From Candidatus Bathyarchaeia archaeon (lineage in GTDB: Archaea > Thermoproteota > Bathyarchaeia > Bathyarchaeales > Bathycorpusculaceae), in NCBI GenBank assembly GCA_049521795.1, contig JBEKOM010000007.1:26233-90232 (forward strand): a stretch of DNA of 64,000 bases, written 5' to 3'. Under the pieces are notes generated by a model, which was not told the origin of the DNA, did no database searches, and saw nothing but the letters and a program-made list of their open reading frames with translations. Shown here piece by piece: positions 2,791 through 51,650 of this stretch. The first letter of the stretch is position 1; every line of letters starts with the position of its first letter. A program made the position numbers and the translations under genes.

Positions 2791-2890
2791 GTTTGGGGTA
2801 AAGTTTTATCCAACCAACCAACCATTACGGACGACGACGGACGACGACGGGCCAACGACGGACGACGGAAACGATAAACGCACGACGGAG
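2791..2890 (+). repeat. dispersed palindromic site GGGTAAAGTTTTATCC with CAAC and GACG low-complexity arm (copy a)
   Basis: Near-identical cores at 4846, 26181, 39106(rc), 39306, 40124(rc), 41057(rc), 44904 and 46622. Confidence 0.85.
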
Positions 2891-3190
2891 GATGGAAGGG
2901 AGGATGGAACAAAAGTGCTTTTCAACGTTAAGAAATGTATATCTTAAGCTCTTCTTAAGACGTACATTTCACAAACAGGGATGGACGGTGCTCTTACTTC
3001 ATGTGCGAAAGTGTAAGAGAATTGAGTAAAAGGCTTTATGCCACTTGCCAATGAACTTCTGCCGATAGGAATGTGTCGCGCGCGCTTGAAGTCTATCTGG
3101 GATATGACCAAGAAGCACAAGATCAAGCAATGGAGATCAGTGAATGATTTCGCGCGCTAAAATTGCTGAAGCATCTTGCGCGCGCTAAAA

Positions 3191-3307
3191 GTCTACGGAG
3201 AGCAAATAGAGCATTTGAATCCAGAAGAGCTTGCCAATCTAGTCAAGATCTGCGGTTTTCTTATGCAGACCAAAGTCTACCTATTCTGGAAGACCTGCGA
3301 TAGGTAG
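3191..3307 (+). pseudogene. 3' remnant of a proviral ABC-ATPase/GNAT gene
   Basis: Translates VYGEQIEHLNPEELANLVKICGFLMQTKVYLFWKTCDR*; KICGFLMQTKVYLFW is identical to the C-terminus of 50187..51650. Starts right after a GCGCGCGC run. Confidence 0.9.
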
Positions 3308-3348
3308 TTTCCCGACCTCAGATACAACGTGTGCGGTCGCTCTTTGCT

Positions 3349-3522
3349 CTAGTCTATCTCGCCAGACCCCTCACATCTTGGGCAGGTAACTTCTCCAGAA
3401 CCGCCACAACGACTGCATTGCTTTGTGTGGTCACTAAGCAAATCGACCTTCTCACCATATCCGCTGCAGCTCTTGCAGCTGACAGTCCCTTTGCCATCAC
3501 AGCGAGGGCATGTTCTGACCAT
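3349..3522 (-). CDS. 57 aa DnaJ-type zinc-finger protein (4x CxxCxGxG)
   Basis: Manual translation MVRTCPRCDGKGTVSCKSCSGYG...QCSRCGGSGEVTCPRCEGSGEID*; below the ORF-track cutoff. Confidence 0.85.
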   Translation of the reverse strand: MVRTCPRCDGKGTVSCKSCSGYGEKVDLLSDHTKQCSRCGGSGEVTCPRCEGSGEID

Positions 3523-3669
3523 TATCGTTCACCATGTCTACATTGGCATGCAGTATAACTGCATTTATGATTTTCTATATTCCCAAGTATTGAGCTAGAC
3601 ACGTGGAAGAGCAGACATCAACGACCGATAGCGTGCGCGTTAACTTGACCAACTCTCTTTTCGGTAGCG

Positions 3670-4722
3670 CTAGCTGGTCAGTTCCTTGATTTTCTTGAAA
3701 ATGTCTTGAGCATAAATCTTTGTTCCGCAATGATCACATCCAGTTTCATTTCCTTCACTTGGCATATTGACGGGTCCATTACAATGAGGACACCTCAGCG
3801 TTGTCAATACCATTCCTCCTTTCTCCATCAACGATCTAAGTGAAGAGAAATCCAGCACAATCGACTTTTTCTCCTTCTGTAGGATAATCTTGTCTCTAAA
3901 GTCCTTCTTAATAGATGACCCACCATCATATGTGTACTTCACATTGTCCGCATAGACATACACATTATCGGATCCGTTGATGGCAAAATCCTGAATGGAT
4001 TGCAGCGCAAATTCCCTCTCTGGCTTGATAGATTTGACTTCGGATAACTGGAGAGCAAAATCCAGCGCATTTGGCATTGATCCATCCTTCTTCGCAAAAA
4101 ACTCTCTTTTCAAAACAGCAAGCCTCTGATTGGTGAGAACATATATGCATTCGCCAGAATAGAATAGATCGCCCTCGCCCTCATTTGCGGTCTTCACTAT
4201 GTATTCTCCAGCTTTCAAGGCCACTTGGTCTCTCCATGGTGGAGGTGGCGGTCTAATGATCGTGCCGGGCGCACGCGGAGCAAGTCCATTCTCTTGTTTG
4301 TAGGCAGTTTCGAGGCTTTCGGCCAGCCTCTCTTCTGAAAAATCAGCAAAGGAAAGGCGTATTTCGTCAAACTTGCTGGTCTCACTATGAGGCCAGATCC
4401 GTATGAAGTCAGCGTGAATGTCCAATGGGATAATACTCGTTTCTCCAGGACCTAAGTCTGCTGTCCAAGAATTTTCCTTGTTCTTCCAGAACCGCAGATC
4501 TTCCCTCTTGTAGTTAAACTCGTAAATCTTGAGTTTGTAGCCAACTCCTTTGCAGAATTCGTTACAGACTTTCTTGATGGTTCGACTGTATTGTCTGATC
4601 GCTTGGTTTTTCTTCTCGATCTCTTGTACCACTTTCTCTTCTTTTTCTCTTTCAAGCCTCTGCGCGTCTTCTTTGAGATTTCTGAGGCGGTCCCGAAAGC
4701 TCATTTCTTTCACTTCCATCAT
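3670..4722 (-). CDS. hypothetical protein: N-terminal coiled coil, PH-like middle, C-terminal zinc ribbon
   Basis: 350 aa ORF; YVLTNQRL (PH-like), CPHC...CDHC and a PPPPP linker. Confidence 0.7.
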   Translation of the reverse strand: MMEVKEMSFRDRLRNLKEDAQRLEREKEEKVVQEIEKKNQAIRQYSRTIKKVCNEFCKGVGYKLKIYEFNYKREDLRFWKNKENSWTADLGPGETSIIPLDIHADFIRIWPHSETSKFDEIRLSFADFSEERLAESLETAYKQENGLAPRAPGTIIRPPPPPWRDQVALKAGEYIVKTANEGEGDLFYSGECIYVLTNQRLAVLKREFFAKKDGSMPNALDFALQLSEVKSIKPEREFALQSIQDFAINGSDNVYVYADNVKYTYDGGSSIKKDFRDKIILQKEKKSIVLDFSSLRSLMEKGGMVLTTLRCPHCNGPVNMPSEGNETGCDHCGTKIYAQDIFKKIKELTS

Positions 4723-4800
4723 TCACGATATTCGACTGACGACTTATTTATTGTTAATGGAGGAGTTCAAAGCGCAGCGCGCGGTGCGCGCGCGATACCT

Positions 4801-4861
4801 GTCCACCAACCGTCCGTCGTGGTCGTCGTCGTCCGTCGTTGGTTGGGGTAAAGTTTTATCC
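4801..4861 (+). repeat. dispersed palindromic site (copy b), GTC arm on the left side
   Basis: CGTCCGTCGTTGGTTGGGGTAAAGTTTTATCC; the arm is the reverse complement of the right arm of copy a. Confidence 0.85.
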
Positions 4862-4894
4862 TTACTCAGTGCACTTGTCGGGTAGGGATTTCAA

Positions 4895-5590
4895 GTGACC
4901 ATGGAGATTTTTCCGTTTTCTCTTGGGTTTAATGATTGTTACGTTGTCCAGGATCAAGGCGTCATAATGATTGATGCTGGTGTGCCTGGTAAAAAAACTG
5001 ATTTCGTAAGAGCGATGAAGAATATTCGAATGGAACCCCAAGACATCAAGCTAATTGTTATTACGCATGGGCACCCAGACCACATGGGTTCTGCCAAGGA
5101 CATAAAAGAAATCACGGGAGCTAGAATCGCTATGCATCAACTGGACAAGGTGTGCCTCGAAACTGGAACATGGAATACCACGGGACACAGGCTCAAGGGC
5201 ACAGGTTTTTGGAGCTCGATAGCTGCAGGAATATCCAATTCATTTGTCGACCTGCGCCATTCCAAAGTTGCCGCTTGCGACGTAGAAGTCACCATTGATG
5301 ACACAGGTGCGGACTTGGCAAATTATGGAATTCATGGGCAAGTGGTCTACACTCCTGGACACGCCGTAGGGTCACTTAGTGTGCTCTTGGATTCAGGAGA
5401 GGCTTTTGTCGGAGATCTTGCGATGAACAAGCTTCCGTTGAGACACAATCCAGGGCTACCGGTCTTAGCCGACGACATGGAGAAGGTAAGGGAAAGCTGG
5501 AGAAAATTGTTGAAACTCGGTGTTACAACGGTCTACCCTGGACATGGAAAACCCTTCTCAGTGGAAGTCATAGAAAAGGTTTTGAAGTAG
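4895..5590 (+). CDS. MBL-fold metallo-hydrolase
   Basis: THGHPDH, TPGH, GD and PGHG motifs. Confidence 0.92.
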   Translation: MTMEIFPFSLGFNDCYVVQDQGVIMIDAGVPGKKTDFVRAMKNIRMEPQDIKLIVITHGHPDHMGSAKDIKEITGARIAMHQLDKVCLETGTWNTTGHRLKGTGFWSSIAAGISNSFVDLRHSKVAACDVEVTIDDTGADLANYGIHGQVVYTPGHAVGSLSVLLDSGEAFVGDLAMNKLPLRHNPGLPVLADDMEKVRESWRKLLKLGVTTVYPGHGKPFSVEVIEKVLK

Positions 5591-5988: not shown

Positions 5989-6124
5989 CCTGCGGAGTTT
6001 CCGTCCGATTCTACTGACATGAAACCGCTCCAACTAGCATCTTTTACTAGTGGGCACGTTGCGGTCAGCTTGCCTTTCGTGCATCAAAACTGTTCTTAGG
6101 TGTTCGCGTTGCTGGAGAAGTTCC

Positions 6125-20635: not shown

Positions 20636-20689
20636 GCGCGACAACGGTCAGCGTTCAGGCCGCGCGTCAGGTTTCACCGACAAAATTAA

Positions 20690-21565
20690 ATGCTCGGGTG
20701 TTCCATAATTGTCCTAGGGGTTTGCTTGAGAAAGGTTTTTGCGGCTGCGTTAATGCTTGCTCTATCGGCAAGCGTTCTTCTAATAGGTGGAACCGCGGCA
20801 AAGTACTACATGAACAATCGCACGACAGGGCAGATCGATTATCACGGTACGGAGGCTAGTGGGGTCACAACCGCTACAAATGGAAACCAACCAAACCACC
20901 CCTCTCAAGCTACATCGGCGCCGCCTAAGACTGGTCTAAATCACACCAGAGTGATCGTCTACCCCAAAGGCAACCAAAGTGAAACAGTATCCACGAACAT
21001 TTCAGTTGTACCGAACAATTTTGTCGTGTCTGTAAACCAGACGTTCAGCGTGGACGTGTGGATAAACCACGTGACGGACATGGCGGGATGGGAAATCAAC
21101 CTCTTGTGGAACAACAGTGTGCTCAAATGCGTATGGGCCCAGATAAACACTCCGCCTGAATGGGGAGGAGTAGCGTTTGATTTTTTCAACAAAACCGAAG
21201 CAGACGCGAATAAGATAGACCCAAATTCCGTGTACACCGCTTGGCTGTTTGGCTCAGGAATAGATAACAATTTCAGCGCCACATACGGACAATACTGGAA
21301 AGCTGAAACTTATGGGCCGTACGGGAGTGGCTACGACAACACTTTCAACGGATCATATGCCATCGTAACGCTTACCTTCAAGGCATTGCGAGCGGGATCA
21401 ACATCCATGGACCTTTTGGAGGCCGAAAATCTGGAAATATCGTGCGTTTACGTGAACCAAATCTGCAATGGATATGCAGAGCTAATAACGCACGTTGACT
21501 ATGGCGGCTTCGTCGAAGTGCAAGATATGATGCCTTCTGAAGCTGCATCAGGTCCCCTTCAATAG
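20690..21565 (+). CDS. secreted cohesin-domain protein
   Basis: N-terminal TM/signal; TFSVDVWINHVTDMAGWEINLLWN...IVTLTFKA cohesin-like pattern. Confidence 0.7.
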   Translation: MLGCSIIVLGVCLRKVFAAALMLALSASVLLIGGTAAKYYMNNRTTGQIDYHGTEASGVTTATNGNQPNHPSQATSAPPKTGLNHTRVIVYPKGNQSETVSTNISVVPNNFVVSVNQTFSVDVWINHVTDMAGWEINLLWNNSVLKCVWAQINTPPEWGGVAFDFFNKTEADANKIDPNSVYTAWLFGSGIDNNFSATYGQYWKAETYGPYGSGYDNTFNGSYAIVTLTFKALRAGSTSMDLLEAENLEISCVYVNQICNGYAELITHVDYGGFVEVQDMMPSEAASGPLQ

Positions 21566-21805
21566 ACTCGATACTGCGCGTGCGCTCAAAGTCGAAAACG
21601 CTGGAAGCCCGTATGTGCGCAGCCCCAAGCGATCAACAGATCGGTTCTCCGACGCGTGACATCCACGATGGAACCGTTGACTCGACTAGCGCGCGCGACC
21701 CGTAAGACAACACAACACGCGGAAAGAGCGGAGCGGCATGGAATGATACGTTTGACAAGTACCAAGACATTACAGTCTAAGCTATGACAGGCTAGAGTTC
21801 AAATT

Positions 21806-45796: not shown

Positions 45797-46563
45797 TGGA
45801 CCTTAGAGGTAAAACGCTGATCGTAACAGGAGCTTCAAGAGGAATCGGCCGAGCTTTAGCCTTAGAACTGGCTCAAAACGGTGTCAACCTTGTCTTGAAC
45901 GCCCGAAGCGAAGCACCCCTCGAGGAAGTGGCTACTGTTGCCCGAGGGAAAGGTGTGAAGACATTGACAGTAGTGGGCGATGCTGCGCTAGCCAGCAAAG
46001 CTCGGGAGATGGTGAAAGCCGCGGTTGGCATCGGCGAATTCATCGGTTTCATTCACAACGCGGGAACCGCTCATCCAGGTCCATTCTTGTACGAACTACC
46101 TGAAGCCATGTTCAAGAATGTCTGGCGAACCAACGTGTTAGCTGGTTACCAGATCGCGCGCTTCTCCTACCCAGAGCTGCGCCGAAGAAAGAGTGGCCTA
46201 GCGGTATTCTTTGGGTCGGGAGCCGCGAAGATGAACGTAGAAGGCATGGGAGCCTACTGCCTATCCAAGGCAGCCGAAGAACACTTGGCGAGGCAACTCG
46301 CCGCTGAGGCTCCAGAAATCACTTGTTTCGTGTACCGACCTGGAGTTGTCGACACTGAGATGCAGAAGGGTGCCCGCGAAGCAAAAGGCAGCGGGGCTGA
46401 GGTGTTACACCGAGTCTTCGGAGAGTTGAAGGAGCGAGGAAGCCTCCTAACTCCCGAAAAAGCCGCGCGAGGATTAGTGCAGATACTACAAGGAGACCCG
46501 CGCCACTTTCACGGCAAGATAGCTAGCTACGGCGAGATAGCTACCTACAAGGAGGGATTGTGA
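45797..46563 (+). CDS. short-chain dehydrogenase/reductase
   Basis: TGASRGIG, HNAG, YCLSK and PGVVDT; start approximate. Confidence 0.92.
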
Positions 46564-46658
46564 AAGTAGCGTGTGAATGCCAAGGGCTTTCTGCTCGTGT
46601 GTGTTGATGTTTGGCGCGCGCGTAAAGTTTTGCCCCCAAACCCAAACGAGCGCGCGCT

Positions 46659-46711
46659 GCTTGTGACCCCAAAACGTTAGTGTCAGAGTGCGAGTCTGTG
46701 CTTCAGGAGAA
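46659..46711 (+). repeat. dispersed repeat, copy 3, at the provirus edge
   Basis: GCTTGTGACCCCAAAACGTTAGTGTCAGAGTGCGAGTCTGTGCTTCAGGAGAA. Confidence 0.85.
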
Positions 46712-46741
46712 GTCCACCCGTCGTTTTAAATGTAACATCAG

Positions 46742-46793
46742 TTGTAATGTTGTATTGTAATGTTGTATTGTAATGTTGTATTGTAATGTTGTG
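46742..46793 (+). repeat. four tandem 13-bp repeats TTGTAATGTTGTA
   Basis: Three exact copies and one with a last-base change, directly upstream of 46806. Confidence 0.9.
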
Positions 46794-46805
46794 TGGTGAC
46801 AAGCC

Positions 46806-47201
46806 TTGAAGAAGCAGACGGGATTTTGGGTCGATGCTCAGGTCTGGGAAGCTTATCGGGGTCTTTGCAGCCGTGAAAAGCTGCGGCCATCTGAGCCGAT
46901 AGAACAGTATCTTAGGGTTATCCTGCAGTACGGGTCAGCATTGACCGTTTTGAACATGATACGAGGCATGGCAAAGGCAGGGTCCGAAGGTATTGAAGCT
47001 TATGCTCGCGTGCTGCTCGACTGGTACAAGAACGAGAAACAATGGATCCATGTTACGGATGAGAGTGAGGCTCCGGTAGAACCGATGCTGTTGAACGCTT
47101 TGAAAAAGGTTGCGGACCCGCAGCTGCGCAAGGAGATCCAAGAGGCTCTTATGGTCAGGCCGCATGAACAGGCCAGCAAGAAGGACGAGAGTGAAAAATA
47201 A
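46806..47201 (+). CDS. putative ribbon-helix-helix DNA-binding protein
   Basis: N-terminal TGFWVDAQVWEAYRGLCSREKLRPSEPIEQYL fits the beta-alpha-alpha RHH pattern. Confidence 0.65.
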   Translation: MKKQTGFWVDAQVWEAYRGLCSREKLRPSEPIEQYLRVILQYGSALTVLNMIRGMAKAGSEGIEAYARVLLDWYKNEKQWIHVTDESEAPVEPMLLNALKKVADPQLRKEIQEALMVRPHEQASKKDESEK

Positions 47202-47409
47202 AGGACGAAACAGAGTTCCAGTGGCCAAGGAAGAGCCGCCTCTCAAGCCTGCAGCGGGTATCAGAGAAGTCAAGAAACGGTTTGTGGACCATGACGATAC
47301 AAAAGAACACGCGCGAGAAATCTTGAAGAAGACACATCAAGGCAGAAAAAATTTAAGAGCGATGGAAAGGCTGGAGCATGAACCGGTCTTTGCGTTGCGT
47401 CACGTTAAG

Positions 47410-48675
47410 TTAATTATGTGTGAACGACCGCGCGCGAGCTTCGTAGAACTGATCTAATGCTTCTTGTGTTAGGAACTCTTCTGGATTTAGTCCCCATGAA
47501 TTGATGATTTCTATTAGGTCGATCATTTTGCTGGCTTTGGTTCTTGGTTGTATGCTAAGGCCTGATGCTAGATAGACTGCGCGCAGAAAATCGACTCCTT
47601 TCATTTTGACATCGTGGTATATGCTTAAGGTGTGGCCCATCATGTACTCAATGTAGTCGCGTTCTACGCCTAAGGAAACCATCTGAGTTAGGAAGAATTT
47701 GCGGAGGCTGTGTGCCCTCAGGTCATATCTCCTGATTCTAGGGTTCTTAGTTAATAGACCAGCCTTCACGTAGAGCGCGTTCACGATATCTCCAATGCGC
47801 GGCGGAGTTAACGGTCTAATCTGGCGATAGTAGCTGATCAGAGGCGATTCATCGTGAAGGCATTCTGGCTGTCTCCGTTTTGTCCCGTTTCTTCGAGCGT
47901 CTAAGTAGGCTTTGAGATAATCTGAAGCTTCCTTGTTCAGAAAGGTGTCGTAATCATGACGCTTTCCTTTTGTTATCGCGGCTTCTACATGAACATGAAT
48001 GGAGGTTCTTCCCTTTTCCATGTCTTGCCTAACGTGGCGATATTTGAGCTGAACCAGGGTTCCGTTTCGAAAACCAGCGACCGCCATCAGGGCGACTATG
48101 ACCTTGCCGCGGGCATCAGCTACGCTTATGATCTTTTGGAGTTCTTCCGGCGTTGGTGCGCGTTCTTCGTAAATGCCCCACCGCGATCTTCGGTAGGGCA
48201 TTCTAAATTTGACACCGTTAAGCTGGAAGAAGAATTGGATGCACTTTACCATGCAGTACACCGTGGCTGGGGCCAAGCCATTTTCTTCTTGAAGATTATC
48301 GGCAAAGTCTGCAAGGAGGCGCCCCATTTGAATGACGGCCTTGGGTATCGGAACTTCATCCTTTCCTTTGCATCGATTCACAAGCTGGTCGGGCTCACTC
48401 TGCAGCCATGTGCAGAAACGATATACAGCGTAAACGTTATTGTAAAGCGTGCTTGTACTGCCTGTTCGGTGACGTAGCAGATGTTTCGTGAGCTCCATGG
48501 TGGTGGAGTTTTCGAAAGTGAATCGCGCCAACGAGGGCTGCCTTACGACGAACGTGTTTATGATGTATTGTTGCAGTTTTTCCTCGGCTACAGTTTCTGG
48601 CTCTGGAATATGAAGTGTCAAGGGTTGTTTCAGTGTGTAATTATTCGGGCTTCTTGTCACGGTCAGGGATTTCAT
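47410..48675 (-). CDS. tyrosine recombinase/integrase
   Basis: GFR, TKG, HSLRK and MMGH....YH: complete R-K-HxxR-H-Y set. Confidence 0.93.
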   Translation of the reverse strand: MKSLTVTRSPNNYTLKQPLTLHIPEPETVAEEKLQQYIINTFVVRQPSLARFTFENSTTMELTKHLLRHRTGSTSTLYNNVYAVYRFCTWLQSEPDQLVNRCKGKDEVPIPKAVIQMGRLLADFADNLQEENGLAPATVYCMVKCIQFFFQLNGVKFRMPYRRSRWGIYEERAPTPEELQKIISVADARGKVIVALMAVAGFRNGTLVQLKYRHVRQDMEKGRTSIHVHVEAAITKGKRHDYDTFLNKEASDYLKAYLDARRNGTKRRQPECLHDESPLISYYRQIRPLTPPRIGDIVNALYVKAGLLTKNPRIRRYDLRAHSLRKFFLTQMVSLGVERDYIEYMMGHTLSIYHDVKMKGVDFLRAVYLASGLSIQPRTKASKMIDLIEIINSWGLNPEEFLTQEALDQFYEARARSFTHN

Positions 48676-50027
48676 TTGTGTGCACCACTTGATTCTGGGG
48701 AAAAGCCGTTCGATTGATGATTCTGCAAAGGCTTTAACCAGAAGAGCAGATCTCTGTCAGTGGCCGGCTTCTTTTCGGTAGTTGAAGTAAGCTGCGCCAA
48801 TGCTTCATTGGTCAGGATTTTCTCAGGGTTCAGACCCCATGCTTGGACTATCTCTTTCAAAGCATCGATCTTGTTCATCTTGACTTTCGCTCGTATGCTT
48901 ATTCTGGAATTCAAGTAGACGCCGCGCAGGTATTCGACGCCTTTCATTCCAATATCATGGTAGCGATCTTTCGCGCGGCGACCCATCATGTAATCGATGC
49001 AATCGCGATCAACGTCAAGTGAGGCCATTTGGGTCCGGAAAAACTTCCTAAAGCTGTGAGTTCTCAATTCATATCTTCTCCGCAAAGAGTTATTTTCCAA
49101 TAAGCCAGCTTTGACATAGAGGTCGTGAATGACACTTTGGACGCTCCCAACAGTTACCGTCTTAACTTGTTTGCAAAGTTTGGCCCTGATCAAAGGTGAT
49201 TCGTCGTGTAGTTCTTCTCGTGGGATCTTTTGTGTGCCTCTTATTCTAGCCTCAATATAAGACCTGAGACAATCTGATGCCTCATCATTCAGAAAAGTGT
49301 CATAACTACGACGTTTGTTCTTTGTTAGTTCCGCCTCGACATGCACATGAATTGGGACGATGTCTCGTTCGATGTCGTGTTTTACATGTTGATATTGCAG
49401 TTTCAGGAGTGTACCCACACGCAGACCGCTGACAGCGAGTATTGTGATTATGACTCTATCACGAAGGTCTGCTAAGTCTAGGATTTTTTGGATTTCTTCC
49501 CGCGAGGGAGCTCGACCTTCGTATACATTCCAAGTGCTCAGGCCGTAGGCCATTCTAAGTCCTACGCAATTGACATTAAACAGGGCTATCACGCCTTTCA
49601 GGTAGCTCCTTATAGAGTTAGGTGAAAAGTTGTTTGCTTGCAAGAAATCTACGTACTCATCAAGAGCACGCGTCATTCTGGCAATTCCCTTTGGGTTTGT
49701 ATCTCCATTTCTTTTCTGGCATTTATTTAGAAGTTGATCAGGCTGGGCGCCAATCCATTTGCTGAAATGATAGACGCTTTCGGCGTATCCGTAAAGACTG
49801 TTCTGACTCCCAGTTCTGCTGAATAGTAGATATCTGGCAAGATTCCTTGTTGAGAAGTTTTCGAGAGTAAATGGTATTAGGCAGGATCTTTGGTTCAACG
49901 ACTCTAAGACATAGTCTAGAAGTTTCTTTTCTGCCGCATTTTGTTGCTCCGGGACTTTTATCGTCAGCGGTTTCTTCAGTATCTTGCCTCGAATGCTCTT
50001 TTCTATGACTAGAGTTTTGTATTTCAT
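48672..50027 (-). CDS. tyrosine recombinase/integrase (paralog)
   Basis: GLR, TKN, HSFRK and MMGR.....YH; start at MKYKTL after a GAGGT SD. Confidence 0.92.
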   Translation of the reverse strand: MKYKTLVIEKSIRGKILKKPLTIKVPEQQNAAEKKLLDYVLESLNQRSCLIPFTLENFSTRNLARYLLFSRTGSQNSLYGYAESVYHFSKWIGAQPDQLLNKCQKRNGDTNPKGIARMTRALDEYVDFLQANNFSPNSIRSYLKGVIALFNVNCVGLRMAYGLSTWNVYEGRAPSREEIQKILDLADLRDRVIITILAVSGLRVGTLLKLQYQHVKHDIERDIVPIHVHVEAELTKNKRRSYDTFLNDEASDCLRSYIEARIRGTQKIPREELHDESPLIRAKLCKQVKTVTVGSVQSVIHDLYVKAGLLENNSLRRRYELRTHSFRKFFRTQMASLDVDRDCIDYMMGRRAKDRYHDIGMKGVEYLRGVYLNSRISIRAKVKMNKIDALKEIVQAWGLNPEKILTNEALAQLTSTTEKKPATDRDLLFWLKPLQNHQSNGFSPESSGAHK

Positions 50028-50186
50028 CTTATCAAACCTCCTTTTCTCTAGGTTTTTGATCTTAAAACTTAAAAGGCAATCTTCTTTTGTCCAAATTCCC
50101 CCGTTCGTTTGAACGGTCGGTTGGCCTATGTGATCGTATAGGAGTAACATCACAGTCGAATCAAAGCAGCCACAGAACAGAGGAAC

Positions 50187-51650
50187 CTAACTGAACTCGA
50201 GCCTTTCTCTTTGCCAGAAAAGATAGACCTTCGTCTGCATCAGAAAACCGCAGATCTTGATCAGGCTTGCAAGTTTCTGGAGGCTCGCGTTTGCTATTTC
50301 CTTCTGATAAGCATCCTTGGTGCCAAAGGGAAGATCATTCGAAAAACTTTTCAGAAAACGTGGATGCCTCTGCTTGGCCAAGGCTTCTCTTATTTTCACT
50401 ATGCCTTCCTCATTGAGTGCTTGAAGCATTTTCGACACATAGTTTGTGCTGCCGAGCAGTTGACTGTTGAACCCGAGGCACTCGAGAAAATCCATGATCT
50501 TCTCAGCTTCTCTTGGCGGGTGCTGTTCCGCTATTCTCTTCATTCCAGTCTTTTCCGCAAACGGGTTGTACTTTGCCATGACAGCTGACATTTCAACGTA
50601 GTCTGTTCCAGCAAGGGCTAACGTCTCGCTTACAAGCTTAACGCCTAAGCCTACCGTTCTAAACTTGGGGTGAACAACGACCCTACTGATGACGCTGAGC
50701 TTCTCATTCAGCTCCCGCATGCTCATTCTCGGAAGTACAAGCCTTCGCCCAAAGCTTGCAGACGGCGGATAACAGTACACGATCACCCCGCAGAGCTCAT
50801 CGCCACGCTTCAAGCAGAAAATCTTGCGCGGCGCGCTTATTCTGTGACTTCTGTAATGAAAACTTGCCAAGGCCCGCCAATCTTCAGTGGAACCCTCTTC
50901 AACACGCATCTCCTTGACTAAACTGCACTCTTTGGCAGGCTCATTCGGGAAATATTTTATGGTGATCTCTTTGCCAAACCTTTTGTGAACGTGAACGCTG
51001 GGATGCAAGTCTTCAAACAGGTCCATGTGTGTTGTCGCTGCTAAAACTGCTTTGCCCTGTTGGCGTGCAAGCTTCTGAAGGTTGAAAGCAACGATCTTTG
51101 CAGTGTCACGATCTAATGTAGCTGCAAACTCGTCGAGGATCCACCACTGCTTGTCGCTTTCAACAAGCTTGGCCAGACGATACCTGTACTTCTGCCCGTC
51201 GCTGAGCTGGTCGTAGGATCGAAGAAAAAGGAAAGCGTCGCCCAGGCCCACCTTAGCCAGCAGCTCCAGACCCTCTTCAACCGTCTTGCCAACTGTCTCG
51301 ATCAGCGGTTTATCCAGAGGAACCTGGATATCTGCGACGTCGACTGCAATGTGTCCGAGGTCCTTCTTGATGGCGCGTAACAGGACGCTTTTTCCGCTGC
51401 CAGAGTCGCCGGTTATGTACACGATGTCTGCGGGGTTTATTTTCAACTCGGCATCCAAGACGGTGAACATGTGCTCCTCGTCAACGCCGAGTCCAAACGC
51501 CTCAGCGACAGCCGAGGTTCTAGGCGTCAAGGCTACCGCTGTGCTGTACGAAATGTTGAAGGAAAACATGTTCCGGGCCCGGTCGTAGGTCCTGCGGACC
51601 TTTCTGATGTGGAAGAACTCGTGTCTTCGCATGGTATTCACTAGCTCCAA
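50187..51650 (-). CDS. ABC-type ATPase fused to a GNAT-like acetyltransferase domain
   Basis: GDSGSGKS, LSDGQ, ILDE and TTH; then FHY and ISRVVVHPKFRTVGLG (acetyl-CoA motif A). Confidence 0.88.
   Translation of the reverse strand: MELVNTMRRHEFFHIRKVRRTYDRARNMFSFNISYSTAVALTPRTSAVAEAFGLGVDEEHMFTVLDAELKINPADIVYITGDSGSGKSVLLRAIKKDLGHIAVDVADIQVPLDKPLIETVGKTVEEGLELLAKVGLGDAFLFLRSYDQLSDGQKYRYRLAKLVESDKQWWILDEFAATLDRDTAKIVAFNLQKLARQQGKAVLAATTHMDLFEDLHPSVHVHKRFGKEITIKYFPNEPAKECSLVKEMRVEEGSTEDWRALASFHYRSHRISAPRKIFCLKRGDELCGVIVYCYPPSASFGRRLVLPRMSMRELNEKLSVISRVVVHPKFRTVGLGVKLVSETLALAGTDYVEMSAVMAKYNPFAEKTGMKRIAEQHPPREAEKIMDFLECLGFNSQLLGSTNYVSKMLQALNEEGIVKIREALAKQRHPRFLKSFSNDLPFGTKDAYQKEIANASLQKLASLIKICGFLMQTKVYLFWQRERLEFS

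Follow-up and report, generated by a model that had tools for sequence, protein, structure and literature searches.

Decayed and cryptic prophages leave short, non-functional fragments of integrase and other genes in the spacers of their hosts after deletion. In e14, which is integrated in icd, and in tRNA-targeting islands, 3' gene ends are displaced, while in SSV-type elements the integrase is partitioned. Foreign-derived pieces between short repeats are also found in CRISPR arrays. According to the available part of one report, alternating GC patterns (i.e., GC6 and GC8) are generally suppressed in prokaryotes, and work on Z-DNA-linked genome instability is cited there (PMC4060949). In the literature on GCGCGC, archaea and intergenic DNA, the titles and abstracts found beyond that report were not about archaeal GC tracts.

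The DNA analyzed here (the window, 64,000 nt in length) comes from a Bathyarchaeia genome whose assembly comprises 2.44 Mb in 69 contigs with 48.6% G+C. Positions 1-47 kb of the window are host DNA, which encodes methylmalonyl-CoA mutase, carboxylases, ribonucleotide reductase and a P-type ATPase. From ~47.4 kb onward, the rest of the contig is a minus-strand tailed provirus with genes for a capsid protein, a tape measure protein, an ABC-ATPase/GNAT protein and two tandem integrases. We noticed that the segment 3077-3307, which is found 47 kb from the provirus in the 630 nt that separate a hemerythrin gene (2059-2721) from a small zinc-finger gene (3349-3528), consists of two 5'-truncated gene tails, both on the plus strand (referred to as relics 1 and 2). 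The locus is probably non-functional debris, in which two 5'-truncated tails of mobile-element genes lie in a strain-specific host spacer and were cut at GC tracts.

The locus contains three alternating-GC runs, at 3077-3085, 3151-3157 and 3178-3185, as the initial annotation had proposed. Their lengths of 9, 7 and 8 nt are within the threshold used for alternating-GC tracts (≥6-8 nt). Run 1 (CGCGCGCGC) overlaps the first two codons of relic 1 (R, A) and marks its 5' limit; it is followed by 62 nt of unique sequence ending in TGA, then by TTT and then by run 2 (CGCGCGC). Run 2 starts 4 nt past the stop of relic 1 and, together with TAAAA, occupies 3151-3162. A 15-nt piece (TTGCTGAAGCATCTT, 3163-3177) lies between the relics, and run 3 (GCGCGCGC), which together with TAAAA occupies 3178-3190, abuts the 5' limit of relic 2. 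The repeated GCGCGCTAAAA reported by the initial annotation indeed occurs exactly twice at the locus (3152-3162 and 3180-3190) and has 8 copies genome-wide, both strands included. When the segments between the CG runs were searched for relatives, two of the three, or ~177 of 231 nt, proved to be derived from mobile elements, while the 15-nt piece matched nothing in the same genome or in 40 relatives. Thus, what had been described as a micro-array of fragments is a pair of relics and not a series. The sequence at 2969-3078 likewise had no match in the same genome or the 40 relatives.

Each relic starts within ~3 nt of a CG run. The start of relic 1 lies inside run 1, where CGC-GCG provides the codons of the first two residues, and that of relic 2 is 3 nt past run 3. 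Both starts are also covered by a direct repeat that is identical at 16 of 18 nt (3078-3095 vs. 3178-3195), which reads GCGCGCGCT-NN-AAGTCTA. The pattern GCGCGCT-NNN-AGTCTA is found at these two relic starts and nowhere else in the genome. The 18-nt repeat encodes RAL-x-VY in the own frame of each relic, a coincidence suggesting that the second junction may have been copied from, or recombined with, the first. Run 2 is probably the native 3' flank of the integrase-like gene and not a deletion seal, as intact homologues possess TAGCGCGGCGCTAG or TAACGCGGGG, a similar CG-rich palindrome, directly after their stop codons. This would leave two of the three runs as candidate junctions.

Relic 1 (3079-3147, plus strand; RALEVYLGYDQEAQDQAMEISE*) comprises the last 22 codons and the TGA of a 209-aa tyrosine-recombinase-like gene. 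Its identity to the C-terminus of the 209-aa protein is 82.6% over 23 positions (tblastx against loci L054 and L055). Relic 1 shares 18 of 22 residues (19 of 23 with the stop counted) with the 209-aa proteins of two relatives, G005 and G012, and its stop is at the same place as in these intact homologues. In a DNA search of 40 relatives, window 3082-3145 matched the same two genomes at 78-80%. Conversely, tblastn of the 209-aa protein against the genome under study recovered residues 188-209 only (E = 2.5e-5 to 4.3e-5), and the rest of the short integrase gene, including its N-terminal part, was absent from that genome. Among 61 genomes, relic 1 matched aa 187-209 of the family (E = 1.7e-4). 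The 209-aa homologues scored 18.1 and 22.3 bits (E = 2.4e-3 and 1.2e-4) against the Pfam profile Phage_integrase (PF00589), below its gathering score of 27.1 bits, though the match spans positions 9-165 of 172; the proteins are therefore named tyrosine-recombinase-like here. Relic 1 includes a Tyr-containing C-terminal motif, which we take to be the catalytic one.

In the 61 genomes, the integrase-like family is represented by two close full-length copies, a further two that are distant, and three tail-only orphans. The integrase-tail orphan of G043 starts within 1-2 codons of the start of relic 1, and GCGCGCG directly precedes it. The ~65-nt fragment recognized by the initial annotation is open in the frame quoted there (LKSIWDMTKKHKIKQWRSVNDF), but that frame, considered as the coding frame of the first piece, is without any relative, and the frame with homologues is 3079-3147. 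The peptide IGRSSLAS, a possible minus-strand integrase relic, was not significant (E = 1.7).

Relic 2 (3188-3295, plus strand) corresponds to the last 36 conserved codons of the ABC-ATPase/GNAT gene of the resident provirus family. Past the homology, its frame includes 3 further, unrelated codons before the stop at 3305-3307. The match to the C-terminus of the proviral protein 47 kb away, on which the initial annotation had relied, was reproduced: within the window, the open frame 3170-3307 (45 codons) was identical to the ABC-ATPase/GNAT C-terminus at 20 of 34 positions (tblastn, E = 1.4e-11), and the 15-residue KICGFLMQTKVYLFW was exact between the two. At the DNA level, relic 2 and the resident gene are 81% identical over 70 nt. 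A profile built from 20 C-termini of the family aligned 3188-3295 to its positions 60-95 of 98 with 46.7 bits and found no homology upstream of relic 2 or in the other frames. With the full protein as tblastn query, aa 447-480 alone were recovered at the relic locus, where the ATPase and GNAT domains are missing.

The resident ABC-ATPase/GNAT gene (50187-51650, minus strand) is full length, encodes 487 aa with Pfam matches to ABC_tran and GNAT as well as PHROGs matches, and stands in a tailed-provirus context; its NCBIfam and PADLOC matches are to generic ABC-ATPases only. A second full copy (contig C6, 12121-13572) is 91.5% identical to the copy in the window. The genome thus contains four copies, i.e., two full genes and two relics (3188-3295 and C1:5654-6035), and beyond them a six-frame profile search of the genome returned nothing better than E = 15. 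The different codons and flanks mentioned in the initial annotation are borne out, as the 45-nt core of relic 2 shows 5 differences from the resident copy in the alignment, all of them synonymous, and homology among all four genomic copies ends directly after TTCTGG. Given that the five differences are all synonymous, relic 2 and the resident copy diverged as working genes. Judged from this divergence, relic 2 stems from a different virus lineage than the resident provirus and did not arise by decay of a duplicate.

The other relic belongs to a second decayed element at C1:5182-6035, in which a minus-strand integrase C-terminal fragment, preceded by an in-frame stop, adjoins a frameshifted ATPase/GNAT tail (aa 355-481) in a back-to-back arrangement. 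Judged by sequence similarity, the resident gene is a member of the family annotated in phage records as an "ABC-type ATPase fused to a predicted acetyltransferase". In enterobacterial phage-plasmid records this is the "MK0520 protein", with which the resident gene shares 38-39% identity across 73% of its length. The phage records with such matches are from Escherichia, Klebsiella and Stenotrophomonas. The matches span residues 23-388 only, and the C-terminal tail kept in relic 2 is outside that range. Acetyltransferase, ABC and GNAT are not mentioned in the available parts of two reports on Bathyarchaeia proviruses and integrases (PMC11705971, PMC10848311).

Comparison with a complete congeneric genome (G001) shows that host synteny extends to window position 1497 and resumes, inverted, at 6066. 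The 4.6 kb between these positions, in which the relics are included, is missing from the corresponding position of G001 and lies at one end of a large inversion; the relics are thus located at a rearrangement junction, in DNA specific to the strain. A related provirus is found in G001, 1.5 kb past the position that matches window 1497. We also looked for collinearity of the flanking DNA with an intact provirus, which the initial annotation had named as grounds against capture of viral DNA; no such collinearity was found, a result that does not favor capture. The genes to the right of the relics, which encode the zinc-finger protein (59 aa) and a 350-aa protein, were beside no ATPase gene or orphan in the fetched loci, and the 350-aa protein is confined to this genome except for its C-terminal domain. 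No intact parent element was present at this locus in any genome searched, so that the deletion is one we infer rather than see.

Several other features were observed. Aligned to positions 2035001-2135000 of G001 contig C1, the host DNA and provirus block of the window is inverted as a whole, and in G001 the methylmalonyl-CoA mutase region is duplicated in tandem, with two matches to the window from 8938 onward. To the left, the relics are bounded by a dispersed repeat element (2776-2968, with CCAACC and GGACGACG motifs) that lies upstream of the hemerythrin gene and is not part of them. This repeat, with its GGGGTAAAGTTTTATCC, CCAACCAACC and GGACGACG motifs, is also found at 4811-4861 (inverted) and at C3:185803-185971, where it is directly followed by GCGCGCGCGCGCTAAAA. 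It precedes both the hemerythrin and the metallo-beta-lactamase gene with the same relative orientation, and its first 30 nt are 90-100% identical in many relatives. In one peat run, contig depth over it was ~1500. Mapping skips such as that from 2811 to 4838 were considered as deletion variants, but they are read as other copies of the CCAACC repeat, because their shorter side is 20-25 nt and inside the dispersed repeat.

At the other end of the window, Int1 and Int2 (47410-50153, minus strand) are tandem tyrosine recombinases that end the provirus, are 44% identical and overlap by 4 nt. Their position in G001 is taken by an unrelated 9.4-kb island (C1:2076915-2086311) with GC runs on both sides, whose largest ORFs are of 864 and 405 aa. 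Near the provirus end, a 13-nt unit (TTGTAATGTTGTA) is present in ~4 tandem copies at 46742-46793, with a 33-nt match on C16. The last 119 nt of the contig (63882-64000) are identical to C3:1-119 and C16:1-119, an assembly fork inside the provirus that suggests two provirus variants or copies in the sample.

The GC runs at the locus belong to a genome-wide population. There are 587 alternating-GC runs of ≥7 nt in the genome, of which 410 (70%, compared to 16% expected) are intergenic, i.e., outside crude ORF calls, for a density of ~1 run per kb of intergenic DNA (410 runs in ~396 kb). CGCGCGC is found 87 times in the window, compared to 8.4 times expected. The consensus of the run flanks is A/TA...T/TA, which gives forms such as the 12-mer TAGCGCGCGCTA. 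This 12-mer has 17 copies in the genome and 19 in G001 and is present in 8 of 10 congeners and 19 of 61 genomes, while a reversed control 12-mer was absent from 60 of the 61. Alternating-GC tracts are restricted to certain lineages. The runs are nearer to stops than to starts (median distances of 107 vs. 180 nt), and 84 of 426 have a run-to-stop distance of ≤20 nt.

GC runs are also associated with breakpoints elsewhere in the genome. From 149 paralogue-detectable relics, 179 truncation points were obtained, and 8 of them were within 5 nt of a GC run, compared to a mean of 3.9 under a null drawn from the same intergenic regions (P = 0.036). The association is polar: 7 of 94 5'-truncation points were that close to a run but only 1 of 85 3'-truncation points. 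Several of these relic-plus-tract cases continue to a natural stop, like the relics at the locus. Around the window, 4 of 30 homology-block ends in G001 coordinates were within 10 nt of a run (intergenic null, 1.25; P = 0.036), and in an independent 400 kb of G001 the number was 12 of 118 (intergenic null, 4.1; P = 0.001), with 11 in the coordinates of the genome under study and 21 in either genome. No enrichment was detected in the coordinates of that genome for the first 100 kb compared with G001 (1 of 32 block ends within 10 nt). As a worked case, both ends of the 9.4-kb island that replaces the integrases in G001 fall at GC runs. The two junctions in G001 of a 23-kb segment of the window (23728-46779) are likewise marked by GC runs, and one junction is located 62 nt inside the frame of the P-type ATPase.

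The 23-kb segment itself, which carries genes for a Na/H exchanger, a glycosyltransferase, GNATs, PIN and other proteins, contains GC runs at high density and is missing from the corresponding position in G001. A 1.1-kb single-gene segment (20664-21773), flanked by GC runs in the window, is absent from G001 too; its ORF (20690-21565) has no Pfam match.

Counts on the other side were also obtained. None of 16 simple indels relative to G001 had runs on both sides, and simple run-to-run deletion is therefore unfit as a general rule. In 7 cases, GC runs lay inside aligned blocks. It should be noted that block ends and GC tracts both favor gene 3' ends; since a run lies ≤20 nt from the stop codon in only ~84 of 2348 genes, however, this shared bias predicts ~4 coincidences and not 12. 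The breakpoint enrichments are about threefold, with P from 0.001 to 0.04 and with gene masks that are crude ORF calls. The association between GC tracts and breakpoints is real but partial.

The partial nature of the association bears on the first alternative, according to which the relics are real but the GC tracts incidental. The tracts would then be post-stop punctuation, perhaps a protein-binding or termination palindrome, and the deletions would have arisen by unrelated processes. The density of runs in intergenic DNA, the resemblance of run 2 to the native 3' flank of the integrase gene and the lack of simple indels with runs at both ends are all consistent with such a reading. So are the ATPase tails of relatives: an exact GC run of ≥7 nt lies within 3 nt of the 5' end in 1 of 18 orphans (L034; in L033, a 6-nt run is 45 nt away), the other 17 being without an exact run at the edge, so that most orphan truncations occur away from GC runs, in a sample in which several of the orphan-bearing genomes are without the 12-mer TAGCGCGCGCTA. 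Three separate counts, however, exceed their intergenic-only nulls, two independent integrase-tail orphans start within 1-2 codons of each other, each at a GC run, and the 18-nt junction repeat is confined genome-wide to the two junctions of the locus. We therefore regard incidental tracts as unlikely, while giving this alternative more weight than any of those that follow.

The ATPase tails of relatives are among the grounds for a second alternative, in which the tails are arms of attachment sites, generated by SSV-type partition of an integrase or by displacement of 3' gene ends as in e14/icd and tRNA genes, at a hot spot that was used repeatedly. Tail-only orphans are common: with the ABC-ATPase/GNAT protein as query against 61 genomes, at least 27 among the ~150 rows listed start at residue 390 or later, alongside many full genes. 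The 20 orphan loci that were fetched yielded 18 orphans, 15 of which end at profile positions 92-96. Integrase C-terminal fragments lie close to the orphan in 4 of these 20 loci and are present at C1:5182-6035 as well, the integrase-tail boundary is alike in two genomes, and homology among the ATPase copies always ends at the end of the gene.

Features expected of attachment arms were, however, sought with negative results. A whole-genome profile search revealed no direct-orientation partner, the other copies being the inverted resident gene and those on C6 and C1; the N-terminal part of the short integrase, which SSV-type partition would leave, is absent from the genome; and no convincing direct repeat was present on the two sides of Int1-Int2 or shared by the provirus end (near 47.4 kb) and C3 or C16. 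G001 contains the provirus in full but is free of orphans. Among the ATPase orphans, the 5' ends range widely (profile positions 25-72), and synonymous sites vary freely among the full genes, so that the ATPase tail has no conserved DNA core. No tRNA (ARAGORN, by which multi-intron tRNAs could be missed) and no Rfam match at the gathering threshold was found in the window, and for 46000-47600 a search at Rfam E-values up to 1 gave one chance-level match only. In none of 19 loci of relatives did the 1.5 kb on either side of the ATPase gene contain Int1/Int2-like integrases. Attachment arms are thus improbable. Since the sequence past the stop differs in every copy, the ATPase/GNAT gene seems to be at a module boundary; such a position in the provirus, together with the harmlessness of promoterless tails, might account for the C-terminal bias of the orphans.

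A third alternative is that the locus is kept for a host function, encoding a small protein in the 45-codon frame 3170-3307 or acting as a small RNA. The 36 conserved codons without a stop are consistent with this, as are contigs from peat metagenomes (three runs from three studies), which cover 2911-4931, 3044-4181 and 2982-3316 with 0 differences, though these may represent one population or include the source sample. In-frame stops are nevertheless present in 8 of the 18 ATPase-tail orphans in relatives, the sole in-frame start candidate is a TTG inside a GC run, and across 40 relatives nothing is conserved but the gene-derived pieces. A functional locus is very unlikely.

Spacer-like capture of viral DNA pieces between repeats, in the manner of an immune-memory array, had been offered by the initial annotation and would suit two mobile-element pieces parted by short similar repeats, but it can be set aside as extremely unlikely for want of any repeat-spacer architecture, given that the repeats are 7-13 nt long and irregularly spaced (65 and 15 nt) with only two pieces that have relatives, the "repeat" is a motif with 587 copies genome-wide, the pieces are exact gene 3' ends running to natural stops and not random protospacers, an exact 22-mer scan found no CRISPR-like array in the assembly (from which such arrays may be missing, as they often fail to assemble), and relic 2, with its 81% match to the resident provirus, is too diverged to guide targeting.

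We therefore return to debris cut at GC tracts as the preferred reading. Building on the homologies, truncations, tract positions and enrichments described above, the following deletion mechanism and order of events can be proposed. The relics, which come from a short tyrosine-recombinase-like gene and from the ABC-ATPase/acetyltransferase gene found in a family of tailed archaeal proviruses, would be all that is left of one or two integrated elements after deletion. Tracts of the TA(GC)nTA type would act as points of breakage or rejoining, by recombination of one short GC run with an identical one or because of non-B-DNA fragility, and the deletions would tend to run from a tract into the neighboring gene. 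The tails would persist because they are harmless without a promoter and a start codon. The eroded older provirus suggested by the initial annotation is upheld insofar as the locus is a trace of older mobile DNA with deletions that end at CG runs, given that both tails are truncated at the 5' end and that CG runs are enriched at truncation points and block ends; it is not upheld in that relic 1 belongs to an integrase family and not to the resident provirus family, and in that run 2 is probably a native flank and not a seal.

A more far-reaching proposal is that the TA(GC)nTA tracts are working sites of a lineage-specific breakage or recombination process, either a nuclease or recombinase that recognizes the palindrome or structure-driven fragility, by which genes are cut in a polar manner to leave promoterless 3' tails. 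We hold this to be doubtful. If it were correct, such a process would drive turnover of gene content and erosion of proviruses; the supposed micro-array would represent two events stacked at a hot spot, and the 18-nt junction repeat would be their footprint.

By themselves, the relics are ordinary genome debris, and the interest of the locus lies in its GC-tract junctions. The relics nevertheless show that the chromosome once carried one or more further integrated elements, one of which was a second lineage of the resident provirus family. The GC tracts, which according to the available part of PMC4060949 are avoided in prokaryotes generally, are abundant in the intergenic DNA of this genus, mostly a short way past stop codons. 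If they are sites of breakage or rejoining, they would constitute a simple determinant of gene loss, provirus decay and rearrangement in a group of abundant uncultured soil and peat archaea.

Among the known systems, CRISPR arrays resemble the locus in that foreign-derived pieces lie between short repeats, but the locus differs in repeat length, regularity, copy number and type of piece: by the definition used, an array has at least three near-identical repeats of ~23 nt or more with regular spacers, whereas the repeats here are shorter and irregular. With e14/icd, tRNA islands and SSV-type elements, the locus shares orphan 3' tails near integrase genes, and tail-only orphans are frequent in relatives; it differs from them in that the direct-repeat partner and the other gene half were searched for here and not found. 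The remnants of decayed prophages are similar to it in containing fragments of integrase and element genes, here in a strain-variable region at a rearrangement junction. The difference from such remnants is that the locus keeps 69 and 108 nt of two gene families with exact 3' ends and with starts at GC tracts. In the latter respect, the locus resembles Z-DNA-prone GC tracts acting as fragile sites, as its tracts, which by composition are candidates for Z-DNA formation, are (GC)n runs of 7-13 nt situated at truncation points and homology breakpoints.
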